Shown: positions 3,801-32,593 of the stretch, piece after piece | Position numbering within the stretch: position 1 is the first letter of the stretch | Layout of the letters: each line of letters opens with the position of its first letter | Origin: a virus | DNA: 64,000 bases | Reading direction: 5' to 3' (one strand) | Virus record (IMG/VR): IMGVR_UViG_3300023296_001674 | Notes under the pieces: model-generated | Seen by the model: the letters and a program-made list of their open reading frames with translations, nothing else | Databases searched by the model: none | What the model was told of the DNA's origin: nothing | Program-made: the position numbers and the translations under genes

Positions 3801-4150
3801 AAATATTTGAACCCATCGAACAATTATTTGATGAAATGGAAGAGACCGGCATTAATATTGCACGCGCCGCAATAAGTGTCGAACTGAAAGCATTGAATGA
3901 AATGTTTCCGCGTCATACGTTCATGTATGAAGGACGACAATGTTTGGATTATGTCAAGGTTTCGCCGCCGTTGCTTGGTGAAGAAAAACTTGTACCTTGG
4001 ACATTTTCTGGTCCTAATTATTGGGATGGCAGGGCGAGTCAATTCCCCGCAATACAAAACATGGTGGAACACTTACAGCGGATTAATGATATCCATACCG
4101 AGTTGACTGTAATTACCCGCCGCAATACTGGTGTAGAAGAAGTTTTCTAA
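3797..4150 (+). CDS. Hypothetical protein
   Basis: ORF track; ATGA overlap with the previous gene. Confidence 0.7.
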   Translation: MKIFEPIEQLFDEMEETGINIARAAISVELKALNEMFPRHTFMYEGRQCLDYVKVSPPLLGEEKLVPWTFSGPNYWDGRASQFPAIQNMVEHLQRINDIHTELTVITRRNTGVEEVF

Positions 4151-5002: not shown

Positions 5003-6511
5003 ATGCAAATACCAGAAATCACACTTTCAACGCAGCAAGTTAATATTCTTGATTGGGTTAAATCAGGAAAAGGTAATGTCATTATCGAAGCTGTAGCTGG
5101 CAGTGGTAAGACCTTCACATTGGTTGAAGCCGTTAAGTTGATGGTAGGCACTGTATTCCTTGGTGCTTATAACTCTGCTATGGGTTATGAGTTGAAGGAA
5201 AAAACCAAGGGCATGAAAAATGTTCGGGCTGGCACGTTCCATAGTGCAGGCTTTGGCGCACTTCAATATCGTTACGGAAAAATGCAAGTTGATGCTAACA
5301 AAGTGCGAGATATCGTTAATGGTATGGCGGAGGGCGACGACTTGTTTGCTGTATACGGCAACTTCATTAACAAGATGGTAGCACTTGCCAAGGATTCCGG
5401 CATTGGGTTCTTTAATAAAATTAACGACCCTATCATGTGGAATGAACTTGTTGATAAGCACGACCTTATGGATCAACTCGACGAACACTTAACAGTTGAT
5501 GTTGGTATTCAGTTATCAATGGACGTCTTAAAGGCATCTAACTCTAATCTTAAAGTTATTGATTTTAGTGATATGATTTATCTTGTATTGTTAAACAACC
5601 TCCGCCTTTTCCAACAAGATTGGGTTTTGGTTGACGAAGCCCAAGATACCAATAGCACGCGACGCGCACTGGCAAAGAAAATGTTAAAACCCGGTGGGCG
5701 TTTGATCGCGGTTGGTGATCCTCGCCAAGCAATCTTTGGCTTCACTGGTGCTGATTCCGATGCGCTGGACTTGATCTCCAAGGACTTCGGTACAACGACG
5801 CTTCCTTTGACTAGCACGTTCCGTTGCCCTAAATCGGTTGTTAAACACGCCCAACAATGGGTATCACACATTGAAGCGTATGATACTAATATCGAAGGCG
5901 AAGTTATCAACGCTAAATTCGACGACGTGTTCGGTGAAAAATCCGAATATAAGTTTACCGGTTCCGATGCAATCATTTGCCGCCTTAACGCGCCTATCGT
6001 TGAACTTGCATTCAAGTTGATTCGTAAGGGTGTTCCTTGCCGCATTGAAGGTAGAGATATCGGCACACAACTTGCAGCACTTGCAAACAAGTGGAAAGTA
6101 GTCCGCCTTGACGCCTTACGCAATCGCCTTGAGAAGTATAAGGAACGTGAAGTATCTAAGGCTATGGCAAAAGGGCAAGAACAGAAAGCCGGTAGCATTA
6201 CTGACCGCGTGGGCTGCCTTAATGTTCTTATCGAACGCGCCGAAGAAAAGAAACTTGACGTTGCTGGTTTGATTGTAATGATCAAGGGCATGTTTTCAGA
6301 CGCCCAAGATAAAACCACAAATAAGAACATTTTGGTTTTATCATCCGTTCATAAATCAAAAGGTAAAGAATGGCCTAGAGTGTTCTTGTTAGGACGCCAA
6401 GAAAATATGCCAAGTCCTTTTGCTAGACAGACATGGCAACTTTTACAAGAGGATAACCTTATCTACGTTGCTGTAACGAGGGCGATGGAAACGTTAATCG
6501 AAGTGGATTAA
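5003..6511 (+). CDS. UvrD/Rep-type superfamily 1 DNA helicase
   Basis: Walker A AVAGSGKT, VLVDEAQD, VGDPRQAIFGFTGA, SVHKSKGKEW, IYVAVTRA. Promoter TTGACT 4949-4954 / TATACA. Confidence 0.9.
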   Translation: MQIPEITLSTQQVNILDWVKSGKGNVIIEAVAGSGKTFTLVEAVKLMVGTVFLGAYNSAMGYELKEKTKGMKNVRAGTFHSAGFGALQYRYGKMQVDANKVRDIVNGMAEGDDLFAVYGNFINKMVALAKDSGIGFFNKINDPIMWNELVDKHDLMDQLDEHLTVDVGIQLSMDVLKASNSNLKVIDFSDMIYLVLLNNLRLFQQDWVLVDEAQDTNSTRRALAKKMLKPGGRLIAVGDPRQAIFGFTGADSDALDLISKDFGTTTLPLTSTFRCPKSVVKHAQQWVSHIEAYDTNIEGEVINAKFDDVFGEKSEYKFTGSDAIICRLNAPIVELAFKLIRKGVPCRIEGRDIGTQLAALANKWKVVRLDALRNRLEKYKEREVSKAMAKGQEQKAGSITDRVGCLNVLIERAEEKKLDVAGLIVMIKGMFSDAQDKTTNKNILVLSSVHKSKGKEWPRVFLLGRQENMPSPFARQTWQLLQEDNLIYVAVTRAMETLIEVD

Positions 6512-11301: not shown

Positions 11302-11704
11302 AGCCGTAACGCAATATGAAACATTCGACGGAAAAGTATTCTCCGACGAAAATGCCGCTGAACAATGGGAACGCAATACAAATAAAGCAAACGCAATCAT
11401 ATCGATGTTTCCGAACAACGGTCATCTTTCATCTGGCGATTTCTATCAGTTATCAAGAGATTTGATTAGCACCGCGAGAATTAAACTTGCCGATGCTTTA
11501 ACTCGTGGCGGCTTCGATGACGAAATGATTAAAGCATTTCGTGATAATACCAGCGATGTAATCGGACGCTATCTCGACGACGGCGGTTCAACATATTATA
11601 AAGCATGGTGGTTATTTTCTTGTATTGACAATCAAGGGCGGATGTTCAATCAACCGTTCTTTGCCAATAATCCAAGAGAAATAAGAGATGAAGTTTCCTA
11701 TTGA
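11294..11704 (+). CDS. Hypothetical protein
   Basis: ORF track; 8-nt overlap with the previous gene. Confidence 0.7.
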   Translation: MPKAVTQYETFDGKVFSDENAAEQWERNTNKANAIISMFPNNGHLSSGDFYQLSRDLISTARIKLADALTRGGFDDEMIKAFRDNTSDVIGRYLDDGGSTYYKAWWLFSCIDNQGRMFNQPFFANNPREIRDEVSY

Positions 11705-12435
11705 TTCTTCCAATCATTTTCCCATATCGTGACAAGATTATAGCCGTGAGATTTAATAAGAGTCTCACGGTTCATAGTCTTTTGATATAACTCGCCGAAT
11801 GATTTTTTATTATTGGTGTTGATATGTTCGGGATTGTGTGTATTAGGATTCCCATGCCAATAATCACCATAGAACTCATATATGGTATTTGTGTCAGGGT
11901 CATAACCGTCTGGATATATCCATTGATTATTTAATATTAAAGTTCGTCGCCTATAATCATTTGTATCAGGTAATCCAATATGATCAAGCCACGATTTTTC
12001 CATATATGATTTATTCTGTATAGTTAATGGTCGCAACATAATGGCGCACTTATTACATCCATGATTTAAATGTGCTGATGGTTCTTGTTGAAATATTCCA
12101 TGTTCAGGGCAAATGATATTCACCTTTGTATGCGTGTTATGATAATCAACTAATGAATAATTATATTTATCGCCATGTTTTATCAACGATTTTTGTATAA
12201 ATTTTAATGTAGTTCCCCGTATTTTATCTGAATTATTTTTTATTGCACATTTAATACAGCCTTTTCCACTACTAGTGTGCGAACAAGGCGTCTGTTCAAA
12301 TATTCCATGAGTTGTGCATATTATTTTAACTTTGGTATGGGCGGCAATATATATAGACAATGAATAGTCATATCTATCACCATGAATGGCGATAGCATCT
12401 TGAATGAATTTTGAGGTAGTTTTTCTTCTTGACAT
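11698..12435 (-). CDS. Homing endonuclease, two Zn-ribbon repeats plus Vsr/PD-(D/E)XK-like nuclease domain
   Basis: MSRRKTTSKFIQDAIAIHGDRYDYSL...KVKIICTTHG...CIKC repeated twice, then DGYDPDTNTIYEFYGDYWHGNP. Lone minus-strand gene within a + strand gene array. Confidence 0.85.
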   Translation of the reverse strand: MSRRKTTSKFIQDAIAIHGDRYDYSLSIYIAAHTKVKIICTTHGIFEQTPCSHTSSGKGCIKCAIKNNSDKIRGTTLKFIQKSLIKHGDKYNYSLVDYHNTHTKVNIICPEHGIFQQEPSAHLNHGCNKCAIMLRPLTIQNKSYMEKSWLDHIGLPDTNDYRRRTLILNNQWIYPDGYDPDTNTIYEFYGDYWHGNPNTHNPEHINTNNKKSFGELYQKTMNRETLIKSHGYNLVTIWENDWKNQ

Positions 12436-12500
12436 GTGATATCCTTCCGGTTATAAATACATTGGCGGTAGGACTTACCTTCCGGTGTCCATGTGATACA
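12436..12500 (-). promoter_or_regulatory. Conserved homing-endonuclease 5' leader (copy 2)
   Basis: Minus-strand cacatggacaccggaaggtaagtcctaccgccaatgtatttataaccggaaggatatcacATG. Preceded by the 10-bp hairpin gtgatacata/tatgtatcac. Confidence 0.5.
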
Positions 12501-12616: not shown

Positions 12617-13462
12617 ATGAAACTCATAGCGATTAATGCAGATATCACCACGTTGGAAGTTGATTGTATCGTAAATGCATCTAATCCAGCACTAATGCAT
12701 GGCGGTGGGGTATGCGGTGCAATATTTGAAGCCAGTGGCGCAAATGAACTTGCGGGATTTATTGCGCAGAACTATGGGCTAGGATGCTTAACAGGGCAAG
12801 TAGTTGTGACTCCGGGGTTCAACCTACCGGCGAAGTTCATCTTGCACACTGTCGGGCCTGATATGCGCCTATATGCACAAGAAGCGGGTGATACATTGTT
12901 GCAGTTATGTTATATCAACTGTATTGAGGCGGCATTCGATGAAGGGTTGACTTCTATTGCCTTCCCTGCTATCAGTACTGGAATCTTTGGATTTGATAAA
13001 AAACGTGCTGCTACGATTGCAGTTACTACATTGATGGACTACAGTGGTAGCGAAGATATCGAAATTACCTTTGCTTGCTTTGGCGATGAAGATACCGCAA
13101 TAGTTCAAGCCGCGATTGATGATGAAGATGCATCACGGCATTATCTATCATGGTCAATGTATAATGAACAATACGATATTGATTCGGCGGCTGGAAAGTG
13201 TGACATTGAAGGCGATTGGGAAGTGTTATACGCTGACTTATCTACGGATGTTCCTACTGGCATTTACATGGTATCAACAACCTATGATGGCAACCTCGGT
13301 GTAGCGAAAGGCGTTGTTATCAATGATGGTGTATTCGATATCGACCAAACCCTACGCGCTTGTGCGGTTGCCCGTAACAATGCAGGATATTGGGGAACTT
13401 TTCTTGAAGGATTGGATTGGAATAGCGAAACCGAAGAATTTACAGCACACTTCGGTTCTTAA
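12617..13462 (+). CDS. Macrodomain protein (ADP-ribose binding/hydrolase fold) with ~115-aa C-terminal extension
   Basis: ADITTLEVDCIVNASNPALMHGGGVCGAIFEASG and AFPAISTGIFGF are macro motifs. Promoter TTGACA 12559-12564. Confidence 0.85.
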   Translation: MKLIAINADITTLEVDCIVNASNPALMHGGGVCGAIFEASGANELAGFIAQNYGLGCLTGQVVVTPGFNLPAKFILHTVGPDMRLYAQEAGDTLLQLCYINCIEAAFDEGLTSIAFPAISTGIFGFDKKRAATIAVTTLMDYSGSEDIEITFACFGDEDTAIVQAAIDDEDASRHYLSWSMYNEQYDIDSAAGKCDIEGDWEVLYADLSTDVPTGIYMVSTTYDGNLGVAKGVVINDGVFDIDQTLRACAVARNNAGYWGTFLEGLDWNSETEEFTAHFGS

Positions 13463-13808: not shown

Positions 13809-14096
13809 ATGGAACTAAACGACCTCCCATCGGTTGCAGCAATGCACCAACACAAGAACCCCGATCAGAAACGGAATGAACGTCGTATGCAGGAATTTAT
13901 AACTGACGATATGATACACCCCGACGAGCCAGCACCACAACATAGGTCGCCTTCGTTGTTGAATGACACCGCCTCGACAGTTGTGTTCGAGGCTGGCATT
14001 GATACACCGCAAATGAGCCGCGATTGTATCATTGCTATATATGAAAAAATATTGGGTGGCAATCCAGAAACTGAACTTAAAAATCTTTTTGCTTGA
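13809..14096 (+). CDS. Hypothetical protein (possibly leaderless mRNA)
   Basis: Track ORF trimmed to ATG 13809. TTGACT-16-TTAAAT ends 6 nt before the ATG and there is no RBS. Confidence 0.55.
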   Translation: MELNDLPSVAAMHQHKNPDQKRNERRMQEFITDDMIHPDEPAPQHRSPSLLNDTASTVVFEAGIDTPQMSRDCIIAIYEKILGGNPETELKNLFA

Positions 14097-14147
14097 CATT
14101 GGTTCAGTTAGTTGCTATAAAGTAGGTAACTTAACCCGAAAGGAAAC

Positions 14148-19451: not shown

Positions 19452-19556
19452 ATGAGAAACGAAGGCACACTCGAAGAACGATATGAAATTTATAAAACCA
19501 ACGCGGAACTTTTGGGTTGGTACATTAAAACTTTTGATGAATGGATGAACAGCTAA
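19452..19556 (+). CDS. Small hypothetical protein (34 aa)
   Basis: Not in the ORF track. GGAG RBS at 19441-19445. MRNEGTLEERYEIYKTNAELLGWYIKTFDEWMNS. Terminator follows. Confidence 0.5.
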   Translation: MRNEGTLEERYEIYKTNAELLGWYIKTFDEWMNS

Positions 19557-19621
19557 AAAGGAGACGGGGTTCGCCCCGTTTTCTTTTAGGTATATATTCC
19601 AGAAAAAACTCATCCCTCCCT
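19555..19621 (-). ncRNA. Predicted ~67-nt RNA from copy E (micro-ORF MSFFWNIYLKENG...)
   Basis: Predicted +1 at 19621. Ends at hairpin 19579-19564 plus a U5 run. Confidence 0.35.
19564..19587. terminator. Bidirectional terminator
   Basis: acggggttcgccccgt hairpin, T-rich after and A5 before. Confidence 0.75.
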
Positions 19622-19655
19622 ACCGTAATAATACCACAATCAACCAAAGAGTCAA
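19610..19655 (-). promoter_or_regulatory. AGGGAGGGATGA-class promoter, copy E
   Basis: Minus strand: TTGACT (19655-19650), 16 nt, TATTAT (19633-19628), 6 nt, 12-mer 19621-19610. Confidence 0.6.
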
Positions 19656-19666
19656 GCGTTAAAGAC

Positions 19667-19788
19667 AAAAAAAGACCCGCCAATTATTAGCGAGTCTTTT
19701 TTCTTTCTCAGGGTACGCCCTCCGATAGCCGAAGGGCAAAATGAATTCGCTACTTAACCGATCCCTCAATTATTTTCGCTGCATCAGA
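19667..19788 (-). ncRNA. Candidate ~120-nt small RNA
   Basis: Minus promoter TTGACT (19823-19818), 17 nt, TATATT (19800-19795). Internal hairpin CCCUUCGGCUAUCGGAGGG. Terminator AGACUCGC/GCGGGUCU plus U7, which pairs fully (one G-U) only on the minus strand. No plausible ORF. Confidence 0.45.
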
Positions 19789-19899
19789 AGTTATAATATA
19801 CCACCTACATTAAAAAGAGTCAACATCTATTATTCGCTTGACTATGGTTCAGTTATGTTCTATGTTTAATCATCAATAACAAATAGAAAGGTTTCAACC

Positions 19900-20445
19900 A
19901 TGAAAATCAAACACGCAAAATTCGGACTGGCAGCAAAGAACATCAAGGTATCTGATACGGATGATGGATATATGTGGAGTGCATCTTTTTATCTTGATGG
20001 TGCAAAAATTGGAACTGCACACGATCAAGGGCATGGCGGCGAAATGAATACACGCGGCATAGATAAAACGGCAATGGCGAAAATCGAAACATATGCGGCA
20101 AGTTTGCCACATGATACCACTTACGGACTCGATATGGCACAAAGTGCCGAAATTGTTCTTGAAGAAAACGCAATGAGTACCGATTCATTCAACAGCGTTC
20201 TAAAGAAAACAAAAGCCGCATTGCGAAAGAAAGTTATGGCAAAAGGTAATAAAGAAGGAATTTTTCGCACTTGGAAAATTCCCACTGGTATGACTGCTGA
20301 AACGAAAATGACTAAACTCCGCGAACAAAAAATCGGTGAAACGTTTGAATTTTTGAACGAACTACCACCAGAAGATGCAATGGATTTTCTTTATGTGGTT
20401 GAACCAGAACCCGATTTTAGCAAGCCGTTTGAACTGGTAACATAA
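19900..20445 (+). CDS. Hypothetical protein
   Basis: ORF track. Promoter TTGACT 19838-19843 / TATGTT 19861-19866. Confidence 0.75.
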   Translation: MKIKHAKFGLAAKNIKVSDTDDGYMWSASFYLDGAKIGTAHDQGHGGEMNTRGIDKTAMAKIETYAASLPHDTTYGLDMAQSAEIVLEENAMSTDSFNSVLKKTKAALRKKVMAKGNKEGIFRTWKIPTGMTAETKMTKLREQKIGETFEFLNELPPEDAMDFLYVVEPEPDFSKPFELVT

Positions 20446-21786: not shown

Positions 21787-21852
21787 AAACCCCTTGACTC
21801 TGGTTCAGTTAGTTGCTATAACTGTATCAACTTAACCCGAAAGGAACACACA

Positions 21853-25381: not shown

Positions 25382-25427
25382 TTGCATTATCGATTGACTC
25401 GTGTATGATCATATCAGGGAGGGATCA
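25382..25427 (+). promoter_or_regulatory. AGGGAGGGATGA-class promoter, copy G (variant AGGGAGGGATCA)
   Basis: TTGCAT 25382-25387, 16 nt, TATGAT 25404-25409, 6 nt, 12-mer 25416-25427. Confidence 0.5.
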
Positions 25428-26217: not shown

Positions 26218-26277
26218 ATTTAGGGGGTTGACTCATCTGATGCCTACCTTTATAACTACAAATAGAAACCAACCACA
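26218..26277 (+). repeat. 60-bp direct repeat (promoter plus UTR cassette), copy 1
   Basis: atttagggggttgactcatctgatgcctacctttataactacaaatagaaaccaaccaca, identical to 26713-26772. Contains TTGACT 26228-26233 / TATAAC 26251-26256. Confidence 0.9.
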
Positions 26278-26712: not shown

Positions 26713-26772
26713 ATTTAGGGGGTTGACTCATCTGATGCCTACCTTTATAACTACAAATAGAAACCAACCACA
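26713..26772 (+). repeat. 60-bp direct repeat (promoter plus UTR cassette), copy 2
   Basis: Identical to 26218-26277. TTGACT 26723-26728 / TATAAC 26746-26751. Confidence 0.9.
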
Positions 26773-27229: not shown

Positions 27230-27277
27230 ACATCCCTCCCTATGGTGATATTAGCACTATTGCCCAAACAGAGTCAA
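27230..27277 (-). promoter_or_regulatory. AGGGAGGGATGA-class promoter, copy J (variant AGGGAGGGATGT)
   Basis: Minus strand: TTGACT (27277-27272), 18 nt, TAATAT (27253-27248), 6 nt, 12-mer 27241-27230. Confidence 0.55.
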
Positions 27278-27431
27278 CACTTATTTTCGCCCCCAAATTT
27301 CAGGCATCACCCAATCTTACCACGTTTTCGAATTACAAGTCAACCCCCTATTTTAATTCATTTAAGGGGTTGACTCTGTTTGGGTTGGGTAGTAATATCC
27401 CTTTATCAACTTAACAAAAGGAAACAAACAC

Positions 27432-27821
27432 ATGGATTCATTAAACGTTTTTGCGGATTCGAAAGTTGGCGATGGTGCAACGATCAATATGTATAGCGAT
27501 TCAAAGGCTTGCACGATTGTGGCGATTAGTGATAAGCGTATCACGGTTCAATATGACGATGTTAAATTGTTGAACGGTGCGAAATCTGGCGAACCCGATG
27601 CACTGGTTTTTGATGTAGGCGGATTTTCCGCACACTGTTCAGGTCGCCAGCGTTGGGAAACAACACCAAACCCCGAAGGCGGCAAGGTGACTTATTCCCT
27701 GCGCAAGTGGAACGACTACAAAAATGAACCAGTTATGCGGTGGGCACCAGTTGGCAGCAAACGCCACGAAGGTTCAGGCTTAACCGAAGGAAGGCATCAC
27801 CACTACGATTTCAATTTCTAG
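27432..27821 (+). CDS. Hypothetical protein
   Basis: ORF track. Promoter TTGACT 27370-27375 / TAATAT 27393-27398. Confidence 0.75.
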   Translation: MDSLNVFADSKVGDGATINMYSDSKACTIVAISDKRITVQYDDVKLLNGAKSGEPDALVFDVGGFSAHCSGRQRWETTPNPEGGKVTYSLRKWNDYKNEPVMRWAPVGSKRHEGSGLTEGRHHHYDFNF

Positions 27822-27836
27822 GCACAAGGAAAAAGG

Positions 27837-27870
27837 AGAGTCAAGAGAAATCTTGACTTTTCTTTTTTTA
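27837..27870. terminator. Bidirectional terminator carrying TTGACT in its arm
   Basis: agtcaaga-gaaa-tcttgact (27839-27858), then a T-rich run. Confidence 0.75.
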
Positions 27871-27893
27871 TTTTTTCCGCCGCCAAAAAAAGG

Positions 27894-27939
27894 TCATCCC
27901 TCCCTACCACCATAATACACTATTCGAACAACGAGTCAA
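27894..27939 (-). promoter_or_regulatory. AGGGAGGGATGA-class promoter, copy K
   Basis: Minus strand: TTGACT (27939-27934), 16 nt, TATTAT (27917-27912), 6 nt, 12-mer 27905-27894. Confidence 0.6.
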
Positions 27940-27947
27940 GACTATAA

Positions 27948-28074
27948 ACGGGGAACCACGAATGATTCCCCGTTTTCTTTTCTATAATGGCTTGGCTTGC
28001 CGTGTCGCCAGACGATTAGATCATGATGTCAAATCCTTCCGTTAATTTTTATCCGGTGTTTGAACTTACTCTCT
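27948..28074 (-). ncRNA. Candidate ~125-nt small RNA, with similarity to the homing-endonuclease leader
   Basis: Minus promoter AAGTGTTGACA (28107-28102), 16 nt, TATTAT (28085-28080). Terminator acggggaa/ttccccgt (27948-27973). Contains ACACCGGA...CGGAAGGAUUUGACAUCAUGAUCUAA, a two-codon ORF. Confidence 0.4.
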
Positions 28075-28180
28075 ACACCATAATACATTAAACAAAATAG
28101 ATGTCAACACTTATTTTAGGGGTTGACACTAACAATCGAAACCGCTATAACTGTATCAACTTAACCAAAAGGAACACCCA

Positions 28181-28390
28181 ATGTCAAACCAAGCATTTGT
28201 AGTTTATAACGGCAAAATCACAGTCAAGACTGAGATTTACGACGGCGGTTTATATTTCGCCGACACCGTGAAAGAAGTGACACAACGCTTGCGCGATTGC
28301 GAGACGTTGGTTGTTAAATCTGGCAGTGAACGCGACCTTAAGAAAATCGTCACCGTCGCCGACCTTTTCACAAACAATCCCCAAGGATAA
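28181..28390 (+). CDS. Hypothetical protein
   Basis: ORF track. Promoter TTGACA 28123-28128 / TATAAC 28146-28151. Confidence 0.7.
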   Translation: MSNQAFVVYNGKITVKTEIYDGGLYFADTVKEVTQRLRDCETLVVKSGSERDLKKIVTVADLFTNNPQG

Positions 28391-31386: not shown

Positions 31387-31432
31387 GTTGACTCTGGATT
31401 TCTTTCTGCTATTATACTGTCAGGGAGGGATG
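31387..31432 (+). promoter_or_regulatory. AGGGAGGGATGA-class promoter, copy M
   Basis: TTGACT 31387-31392 (in the right arm of hairpin ccagagtca/tgactctgg, 31371-31396), 16 nt, TATTAT 31409-31414, 6 nt, 12-mer 31421-31432. Confidence 0.6.
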
Positions 31433-31455
31433 ACTTTATTTTATTCCCGCACTTA

Positions 31456-31557
31456 TAATAAAAGCCAGACTCGCGTCTGACCTTTATCCTTTCTTTCTAT
31501 CCGGTTTATGTCCGCCACGTCGGGTCGGAACTATGTATCGCCGAACGCGTCGGCTAG
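31456..31557 (-). ncRNA. Candidate ~100-nt RNA convergent with the copy M transcript
   Basis: Minus promoter TTGACA (31591-31586), 16 nt, TATTAT (31569-31564). Terminator GGUCAGAC-GCGA-GUCUGGCU (31482-31463) plus a U-rich run. Confidence 0.35.
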
Positions 31558-31672
31558 ATTTATATAATACCACAACAACCAAACATGTCAACAAAAAAGA
31601 TTCAATAATAACACTTGACTCCGTTTGGGTTGGGTGTATACTATCCATAGATTGAAACAAAGGATTAATCAA

Positions 31673-32593
31673 ATGGCAAAAGCAACCCGCACCAAAATCG
31701 ATCATGAGCAACAAATCACTAACGCTATTGTCGCCCACGTTGAAGGGTATATCGCCGCCGAGGCTACAGGCGAAGAGATCGCACGTTGGGAAAGCCCCTT
31801 CGGAAAATTCTTCCGTGAAGGCCATTTTTGCGCCGCAACCGATAACCAGTATAAAGGCTGGACTAACAATTTTTTCCTTACACTTATGGCGCACGCAAGC
31901 GGATTCAATTCCGATGCATGGGGAACATTCAAGCAATGGAAAAGCATGGGAACGGATGAAACACCCGTATCTGTTAAGCATGGTCAAAAAGGTTCCGCTT
32001 GGATTGCTTTTCCATATATCAACAAAGATAAAGTAACCGGCGACGACACCGTAACCGGATTCGGATATCGCGCCGTATTCAATGCCGATCAAATCGAAGG
32101 ATATACGCCCGAGGTTGTTGAACTACCAGAGTCGCAGGTTGTGCAACATGCCAAAGCTGAAACATTCTTGAAAAATCTGGACGTAACATTCCAGCATATC
32201 GGAAACCGCGCTTTCTATAGCCCTGCTAGTGATGCAATCAGCATGCCCCCAGAAGGCGCGTTTAAGGCGACTGAATACAGTACCGCAACCGAAGGCTACT
32301 ATGGCACCAAGTTTCATGAATACGCCCACGCAACCCTGCACGCTAGCCGGTGCAATCGCGAACAAGGCGCGGATAAAGCTTCATACGCTTTCGAAGAGTT
32401 GGTCGCCGAATTGACCTCGACTATCCTATGTTCGCGCTTTGGTATATCCGCACAACCACGCGAAGACCACGCTAAGTATATACATTCATGGTTGAAAGCA
32501 CTGAAAAGCGACAAGACCATGATTATGAAGGCAATGAAGAAAGCAAGCCAAGCAATCGCTTGGATGGATAAAAAGCAACCAACATCAAAATAA
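31673..32593 (+). CDS. ardC: ArdC-like protein: N-terminal ssDNA-binding (DUF1738-like) domain plus C-terminal zincin metalloprotease
   Basis: Trimmed to ATG 31673. YKGWTNNFFL...WGTFKQW, HEYAHATLH (HExxH), YAFEELVAELTSTILCSRFGI, AKYIHSWLKALKSD. Promoter TTGACT 31615-31620 / TATACT 31637-31642. Confidence 0.8.
   Translation: MAKATRTKIDHEQQITNAIVAHVEGYIAAEATGEEIARWESPFGKFFREGHFCAATDNQYKGWTNNFFLTLMAHASGFNSDAWGTFKQWKSMGTDETPVSVKHGQKGSAWIAFPYINKDKVTGDDTVTGFGYRAVFNADQIEGYTPEVVELPESQVVQHAKAETFLKNLDVTFQHIGNRAFYSPASDAISMPPEGAFKATEYSTATEGYYGTKFHEYAHATLHASRCNREQGADKASYAFEELVAELTSTILCSRFGISAQPREDHAKYIHSWLKALKSDKTMIMKAMKKASQAIAWMDKKQPTSK

Follow-up and report, generated by a model that had tools for sequence, protein, structure and literature searches.

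What two short transcription units, both devoid of open reading frames (ORFs), are for when they stand in tandem on the strand opposite to the genes is the question raised by positions 19555-19823 of the window, the 64,000-nt stretch of viral DNA analysed here (IMG/VR record IMGVR_UViG_3300023296_001674). The window matches, without any difference, a section of a 570,549-bp metagenomic contig (ENA ERZ27315719 k141_202852), and the surroundings of the locus look like an early-type region, dense in promoters and ORFans, of an uncultivated huge phage. In the initial annotation, the locus was described as a ~120-nt RNA unit followed directly by a second unit, whose promoter belongs to the class carrying the 12-nt motif AGGGAGGGATGA; its coordinates and description were correct and every feature was located as stated. 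Our reading, to which we give a probability of about one half, is that promoter/terminator cassettes are stacked here between two genes, and that the first and longer unit would act via transcription and not via the sequence of its RNA.

From 19823 to 19555 on the minus strand, a sigma70-type promoter, ~120 ORF-less nts, an intrinsic terminator, the AGGGAGGGATGA promoter, a short RNA and a bidirectional terminator follow one another. This anatomy can be read directly, and the transcript ends given below for all units are predictions.

19838-19866, plus strand: class promoter TTGACT-17-TATGTT, expected to drive the downstream ORFan gene 19900-20445
19795-19823, minus strand: TG-extended promoter TTGACT-17-TATATT of long unit 1, predicted start at ~19788
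19667-19788, minus strand: predicted RNA of long unit 1, ~122 nts, ORF-less
19717-19737, minus strand: internal hairpin GCCCUUCG/CGGAGGGC of long unit 1, kept with altered bases in L073, the orthologous locus of a relative
19673-19697, minus strand: internal terminator T2, AGACUCGC-loop-GCGGGUCU, with its U-run at 19672-19667
19628-19655, minus strand: AGGGAGGGATGA-class promoter TTGACT-16-TATTAT, TG-extended, with a -35 that begins 11 nts past the U-run of T2
19610-19621, minus strand: AGGGAGGGATGA motif, 6 nts after the -10, predicted +1 to +12 of the short RNA
19555-19621, minus strand: predicted short RNA 1, ~66 nts, made of the motif, U6, GGAAUAUAUACC and the terminator
19564-19579, bidirectional: terminator hairpin T1, ACGGGG-CGAA-CCCCGU, with a U-rich tail (19579-19555)

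The gene promoter and the long-unit promoter are back-to-back, with 14 nts between their -35 hexamers. T2 is fully paired on the minus strand only, as had been proposed, the G.U pairs of that strand being C.A mismatches on the plus strand. T1 is common to short RNA 1 and to the converging plus-strand gene with its stop at 19556, and the short RNA is predicted to run to this terminator. Six-frame translation, tblastx searches of the window and of every locus, and an orthologue comparison revealed no conserved ORF in the long transcript region, in any frame and in either this phage or the relative that shares the locus.

The same order of parts recurs, as annotated, at a second locus on the minus strand (28107-27828), and two further places resemble it in part.

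28123-28151, plus strand: class promoter TTGACA-17-TATAAC, assigned to gene 28181-28390 and back-to-back at 15 nts with that of the long unit
28080-28107, minus strand: promoter of long unit 2, TTGACA-16-TATTAT
27945-28073, minus strand: predicted RNA of long unit 2, ~125 nts, ORF-less
27948-27973, minus strand: T2 of locus 2, ACGGGGAAUCA...UGGUUCCCCGU
27912-27939, minus strand: AGGGAGGGATGA-class promoter TTGACT-16-TATTAT
27828-27905, minus strand: motif (27894-27905) and predicted short RNA 2, which enters the bidirectional terminator 27828-27869 of gene 27432-27821
31388-31591, both strands: third, related locus, in which a plus-strand motif unit (promoter 31388-31415, motif 31422-31433) faces a convergent minus promoter, with a shared terminator at 31464-31481
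27230-27343, minus strand: variant without internal terminator, made of a minus promoter (27343-27314), a motif promoter (27277-27248) and the motif (27241-27230)

At loci 1 and 2, the predicted short RNAs measure ~66-78 nts and the -35 of the motif promoter begins 11-12 nts past T2. The minus promoter of the third locus (31591-31564) precedes ~95 ORF-less nts and is back-to-back with the promoter of the ArdC gene (31615), while that of the variant lies directly upstream of the motif promoter and back-to-back with a plus-strand promoter (27370). The region from 1 to 34 kb holds four non-coding minus promoters that are not motif promoters (19823, 27343, 28107 and 31591); all four stand beside a motif unit and all four are back-to-back with a plus-strand promoter at 14-26 nts. 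Their relation to the motif unit varies, being tandem with a terminator twice, tandem without a terminator once (27343/27277) and convergent with a shared terminator once (31591 against 31388). More generally, any non-coding minus promoter that is not preceded by a leftward promoter is found 14-26 nts from a plus-strand promoter, and back-to-back placement is also found in relatives and in the extension of the contig to the left of the window. The back-to-back place of a gene promoter is filled by another leftward promoter wherever the motif promoter is not its partner. Promoter-like sites exceed expectation: 14 were found where 4.7 were expected, and 6 where 1.9 were. A spacing of 202 nts is identical at both window loci, and was rejected as meaningful since the spacings counted on the sequences of the relative are ~193 and ~212 nts, and the identity is taken as a coincidence.

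The conservation of the two loci was followed at orthologous sites reached via homologues of the flanking proteins. One moderately diverged relative, the closest one (ENA ERZ23498442, with L073 as locus 1 and L064 as locus 2) holds both stacks in unchanged order, at a divergence from the window of 68-81% identity for the flanking proteins and 44-58% for 4-fold sites. The hexamers of the long unit 1 promoter are TTGACT/TATATT in both phages, those of long unit 2 are TTGACA/TATTAT in the window and TTGACT/TAATAT in L064, and the spacers are unrelated at both loci. T2 is likewise retained at both: at locus 1, an A-to-G change in L073 preserves pairing solely on the minus strand, and at locus 2, L064 has kept the U-tail of the minus strand and lost the T-tail of the plus strand. 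The kept hexamers, the kept T2, the minus-specific G.U pairs and the conserved minus-strand U-tail argue, on comparative grounds, for the long units as genuine transcription units of the minus strand that are under selection. The bodies lying between these signals are 60% identical to L073 at locus 1, with 14 gap columns, and 57% identical to L064 at locus 2, with indels, and the short units are 80% (L073) and 85% (L064) identical. L064 retains the convergent arrangement of the third locus as well.

More distant orthologues of locus 2 show what is dispensable. In L066, L071 and L072, the antisense AGGGAGGGATGA unit is kept after the gene terminator without the long unit, and the motif promoter is directly back-to-back with the promoter of the next gene; in L022, which is rearranged, the long unit is missing too. 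Of the 14 motif copies of this phage, 2 have the two-unit stack, and of the ~28 family copies on other metagenome contigs, none has it. Its absence from the distant orthologues and from the other family copies makes the stack a lineage-specific elaboration with the motif unit as its core: the long unit is an optional accessory insert, and the conserved entity is the motif unit adjoining a gene promoter. The suggestion that the arrangement itself is what is conserved finds no support in that form: one relative shares it by inheritance of each locus, and it is absent from four distant orthologues of locus 2. The search for it elsewhere, which had been recommended with that suggestion, recovered both loci in the relative and, among the 14 motif copies of the phage, only those two.

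The motif unit, with 14 copies in this phage and ~28 in metagenomes, is the conserved core. In the window, the AGGGAGGGATGA 12-mer occurs 13 times at 0-1 mismatch against 0.14 expected, always within 4195-31433, and no copy with 2 mismatches was found there; the 14th copy lies within 8 kb to the left of the window, where its promoter is back-to-back with a gene promoter. Because the 12-mer is located 6 nts downstream of the -10 in every copy, it is predicted to form +1 to +12 of the transcript. A metagenome scan for the promoter with the 12-mer returned 47 loci, among which ~28 copies are true family members, located on short contigs from several independent projects, and the remaining hits are ordinary ribosome-binding sites. 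No true family member was found in IMG/VR and GTDB species genomes, and a literature string search for the 12-mer gave unrelated primer hits only. The family consensus consists of a T-rich upstream part, TTGACt, TGnTAtTATAATGGT, AGGGAGGGATGA and GCTTTTTnTGG, followed by lineage-specific palindromes. The latter lie at ~+20 to +45 after the motif (L016-L060; 19590-19601 in the window), are of the type GGAATATATTCC or consist of two GTTAAC(C) copies, and are candidate operator sites.

Of the 13 copies in the window, seven lie antisense and stop in a bidirectional terminator that belongs to a converging gene, and the other six are sense, upstream of gene promoters. In relatives, the usual context is a motif promoter back-to-back with a divergent gene promoter, and face-to-face and tandem combinations of motif promoters are present as well. 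Where AGGGAGGGATGA promoters face each other, with ~25-40 nts between the motifs (L047 1150-1260; L040 and L051 at ~315-380), the short RNAs would be fully complementary. One ORF-free stretch (L026 300-830) carries three near-identical units of a promoter and a ~40-nt hairpin in tandem at a spacing of 78 nts, and two motif units 146 nts apart come after this array.

What the 12-mer does is a separate question, for which a 5′ stabiliser or ribosome-binding tag, a factor-loading site and an optimised initial transcribed sequence are all possible. Its AGGGAGG part, as read from the sequence, is complementary to the 3′ end of the 16S rRNA (3′-UUCCUCC-5′) if one G.U is allowed. The AUG within the motif lies 1-2 nts from this Shine-Dalgarno (SD)-like sequence and is hence too close for normal initiation. 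The ORFs that begin at this AUG measure 2 to >100 codons and are not conserved, and the ATG is replaced by ATC in three independent copies (window 25416-25427; L064 63-74; L072 1870-1881). The G-to-C change that gives ATC lengthens the complementarity to the 16S 3′ end (GAUC). Initial transcribed sequences rich in purines are a usual feature of powerful phage promoters, for example T7 A1 (AUCGAGAGGGA...) and T5 N25 (...GAGAGAGGAG); we know of no promoter class in which an identical 12-mer at +1 to +12, followed by a U-tract, is repeated over many copies and diverged phages. The STAB-SD of cryIIIA and the polypurine element of SP82 (references 106 and 179 in PMC3997798), of which one stems from a phage early RNA, are 5′ stabilisers that block RNase J1 in Bacillus. 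The motif resembles them as a polypurine, 16S-complementary sequence near a 5′ end that is not placed to start a normal ORF; it differs in lying exactly at the predicted +1, and in that half of the RNAs hold only a terminator to stabilise.

Two other views of the motif were rejected. A T7-like promoter for a phage polymerase, considered for its resemblance to TATAGGGAGA, does not fit a spacer that is not conserved and -35/TGn/-10 elements that are correctly spaced in nearly all copies. A 5′ hairpin of AGGGAGGG with the U-tract reaches only -2 to -4.7 kcal/mol, no better than shuffles; a general hairpin after the motif was not significant either (median z -0.4).

With these elements, the stack could operate as two short, ORF-less units of the host sigma70 type, in tandem on the strand opposite to the genes. 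The second unit is the conserved core, with a near-consensus -35/TGn/-10 promoter whose first 12 transcribed bases give the almost invariant, purine-rich, SD-like AGGGAGGGAUGA and then a U-tract, the ~66-nt predicted transcript ending in the bidirectional terminator shared with the converging gene. The first unit (~120 nts) would be an accessory cassette inserted between the motif promoter and the next gene promoter, where its own leftward promoter takes over the back-to-back position opposite to the gene promoter. As a divergent partner, it may share an A/T-rich upstream region with the gene promoter and influence it by local supercoiling or polymerase capture, while itself yielding a short, quickly terminated RNA. 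The minus-specific terminator, 11-12 nts before the -35 of the second unit, would block read-in that occludes the motif promoter and would also keep antisense transcription out of the upstream gene. Promoter firing, RNA starts and RNA ends enter this reading as deductions from the arrangement of the signals, as does the function itself.

The closest known elements are the PeSLs (promoter-early stem-loop cassettes) of T4-type phages, in which a strong sigma70 promoter is coupled to a terminator stem-loop; they lie beside ORFans and bring about indels (PMC2839356, PMC4122927). Common to both are near-consensus sigma70 promoters with A/T-rich or T-rich upstream sequences (here TTGACT or TTGACA, 16-17 nts, TATATT or TATTAT, often TG-extended) and a terminator stem-loop that adjoins a promoter, T2 ending 11-12 nts before the motif -35 at both loci. 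Further likenesses are the many repeats in an ORFan-rich hyperplastic region and the association with indels, the long unit being present in the window and in L064/L073 and not in L066, L071, L072 and L022. By analogy, the junction between the terminator of the first unit and the promoter of the second is of the PeSL kind. Two differences are an invariant 12-nt motif in the transcribed part of one promoter class, which lies outside the PeSL description, and the phage itself, which is uncultivated, measures ~570 kb and is not classified as a T4-type virus. T4 early promoters have a UP/-35/TGn/-10 build (PMC2988021), and this architecture, with the host polymerase as its putative user, is also seen here. 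On balance, the stacks vary a known theme, that of promoter-terminator cassettes, and do not represent a new kind of element.

Such a reading matters because huge phages are known almost solely from metagenomes and the organisation of their early transcription is largely obscure. The region displays a dense modular grammar of class promoters for genes, bidirectional terminators and promoters of a second class, whose invariant transcribed tag measures 12 nts and which are found sense, antisense, in tandem and face-to-face. The two-unit loci would add that modules can be stacked and mutually insulated by strand-specific terminators, and that selection can keep a transcription unit while the sequence of its RNA drifts nearly freely. 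If confirmed, the PeSL concept of mobile regulatory cassettes would extend to antisense, gene-less units, and defined promoters, terminators and a candidate 5′ RNA tag would be available for in vitro tests.

Several points weigh against the stack as we read it. Described PeSLs are sense elements that precede an ORF with its Shine-Dalgarno sequence and start, whereas the units here are antisense, empty and bound by promoter and terminator around ORF-less sequence. The host and the polymerase specificity are deduced from consensus only, the benefit of a divergent partner promoter is hypothetical, and the role of the invariant 12-mer is left without explanation by the stack model. The near-neutral evolution of the bodies, moreover, rests on pairwise comparison with one informative relative per locus. 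Long unit 1 contains conserved islands (GAUGNAGCGAAAA and AAGUAGCGNANUCA) and a hairpin kept despite base changes, which could be marks of a functional RNA. Finally, the body length is kept within ~10% at ~50% identity of synonymous sites, and a pure by-product need not keep its length.

A first alternative is that the ~120-nt units are trans-acting small RNAs (sRNAs), one per locus, that are made from promoters and terminators of their own and act by base pairing or protein binding, with the AGGGAGGGAUGA RNA as the second sRNA of a two-gene locus. A promoter and a minus-specific terminator conserved in the relative at both loci are what such genes would have, and the size and shape of the units (a 5′ single-stranded part, a hairpin, an A-rich linker and a terminator) are typical of bacterial sRNAs. 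The two islands of locus 1 and its hairpin, which survives base changes, fit as well. The bodies, however, are hardly more conserved than 4-fold sites and contain indels, and more distant orthologous loci lack the unit altogether. Structure gives no further support: of the transcript that had been called structured, the terminators and the hairpin 19737-19717 stand, but without the terminator the bodies fold like shuffles (z -0.9 and -0.5), and a structured RNA was rejected as the significant fold z-scores vanish without it (z -0.9, -0.5 and -0.1 against shuffles). With two sequences per locus, covariation is anecdotal. Rfam 15 gave no match at the gathering score over the whole window and, at permissive E-values, only sub-threshold, terminator-driven matches at both loci.

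Homology and target searches point the same way. The two long RNAs had been said not to be obviously homologous, and pairwise alignment (with matches confined to the promoter and motif parts), blastn-short and nhmmer agree; the latter two found no homologue or paralogue of the long units in the window or in the 47 metagenome loci. Predicted duplexes between the long units and phage translation-initiation regions were at best no better than those of shuffled RNAs. One more feature favours an sRNA: in L064, the long units of two different loci have in common a 34-nt segment at 97% identity (774-807 and 3876-3909), which suggests exchange or a shared module. This segment contains a Shine-Dalgarno sequence and a 2-codon minigene, which reads GAAAGGA-N6-AUG CGU UAA there and GGAAGGA-N9-AUG AUC UAA at the aligned position of long unit 2 in the window (28010-28040, minus strand). 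The minigene is not present in long unit 1 or at the third locus of the window, and could easily be a chance feature. An RNA-level role of the long units is thus possible, but we regard trans-acting sRNAs as unlikely, and a sequence-specific sRNA as less likely than an action via transcription itself.

It is also doubtful that the long units are functionless scars, that is, inverted or emptied PeSL-type cassettes left by recombination between promoter repeats and shared through recent divergence. Insertion and deletion mediated by PeSLs are documented (PMC2839356), the region is rich in repeated promoter/terminator modules and indels, and the gene content after the orthologue of 27432 differs in L022. 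A small indel lies beside locus 1 itself, where a 34-aa ORF (19452-19556) between a DUF8317 gene and the terminator is missing in the orthologue L073. In addition, the long-unit promoter of locus 2 shows 72% similarity to its neighbour, the motif promoter 27908-27943, and the evolution of the bodies is almost neutral. Against this, unconstrained hexamers and an 8-bp stem would not stay near consensus at both loci and at the third when 4-fold identity is 44-58%, and the strand-specific conservation of G.U pairs in T2 points to a minus-strand hairpin in use. Moreover, ~170 nts are kept at two loci, although compact phage genomes tend to shed unused DNA.

A different division of roles would make the short AGGGAGGGAUGA RNA a cis-antisense regulator of the upstream gene, with the long unit only shielding it against read-in. 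The model would be OOP of phage lambda, a short cis-antisense RNA with its own promoter and terminator that overlaps the end of the cII coding sequence. With full complementarity to the terminator region at the 3′ end of the converging mRNA, the short RNA could trigger processing of the latter, and its purine-rich 5′ end could bind ribosomes as a stabiliser. Like OOP, it is short (~66-78 nts), has its own promoter and an intrinsic terminator, and is directed towards the 3′ end of a converging gene. The seven antisense copies of the window, the placement kept at the orthologous sites of L064, L066, L071 and L072, the conservation of 80-85% and the pairing of AGGGAGG with CCUCCUU of the 16S rRNA, next to an AUG too close for initiation, are all in keeping with this, and 5′ SD-like stabilisers have precedents in those cited in PMC3997798. 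Unlike OOP, however, the short RNA overlaps the mRNA only in the shared hairpin 19564-19579 and its tails (a terminator hairpin of ~35 nts, no coding sequence), its predicted 3′ end being at the stop codon, and there are many copies in both orientations. The six sense copies upstream of gene promoters and the face-to-face promoters of relatives are not explained by a role antisense to a gene, the conservation is partly due to a terminator that also serves the upstream gene, and 30S binding and stabilisation are putative. Taken together, this regulator seems rather improbable.

The AGGGAGGGAUGA 5′ tag might instead define a new family of short phage RNAs with a common reader, to which the two-unit loci would add a fast-evolving companion RNA that tracks a changing target. 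The reader could be the 30S subunit, which would pair through its anti-Shine-Dalgarno sequence, or a factor of the phage that is loaded at the U-tract and binds RNA or acts in antitermination. We consider such a family distinctly improbable; if it existed, the stacks would be sRNA operon-like loci instead of regulatory scaffolding, with many dedicated promoters in an uncultivated clade of huge phages.

Very improbable is that the units encode minigenes or tiny peptides comparable to the lambda bar minigenes (the motif ATG followed by Ser-Phe-Phe and then Trp or a stop; AUG AUC UAA in long unit 2), since, even if seven of the 13 window copies read M-S/T/R-F/I-F/I/L-W, one keeps Ser by another codon (ATGTCT), many relatives read MSFF-stop and SD-AUG-NNN-UAA is kept at the aligned position of L064 and duplicated there, the ORFs vary from 2 to >100 codons with frame shifts between orthologues, the ATG has become ATC three times independently, the SD-AUG spacing in the motif is 1-2 nts, long unit 1 has no minigene and the T-run accounts trivially for the Phe codons.

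The genomic setting of the stack can be described further. Positions 1-34,000 of the window hold ~70 small plus-strand ORFans, the genes flanking both loci among them, and at least 46 plus-strand promoters, many of which belong to a class with a conserved spacer. Genes for an ArdC-like antirestriction protein/metallopeptidase (31625-32593), a Macro-domain protein (12617-13462) and a UvrD-like helicase (5003-6511) occur among the ORFans, which suggests an early host-takeover or anti-defence region. A gene with an rIIB domain and its neighbour of 728 aa are located 8-10 kb to the left of the window, and a weak match to T4 Y07C was found near the window alongside the rIIB domain in this 570-kb contig. 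No tRNA or tmRNA gene was found in the window, and no close relative was found in annotated phage and plasmid collections, IMG/VR or GTDB genomes.

At ~34000 in the window, where the promoter-rich region of small genes ends, the G+C content drops from ~0.40 to 0.33-0.36. The plus-strand gene-promoter class has at least 13 copies between 12558 and 31072 (e.g., 14092-14132, 21793-21833 and 28122-28162), in which both the spacer (CTTGACtcTGGTTCAGTTAgTTGCTATAAC) and the 5′ untranslated region after it (UTR; ..ATCAACTTAACC..AAAGGAAC..ATG) are conserved. A promoter and its 5′ UTR form an exact direct duplicate of 60 nts (26218-26277 and 26713-26772), the copies being 495 nts apart with a small gene between them. 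Three DUF723 paralogues are associated with DNA repeats of 93-158 nts that are 72-80% identical (97-254 and 12085-12450; genes 11698-12435, with paralogues in L078), and HNH-like and SprT-like genes lie close to them.

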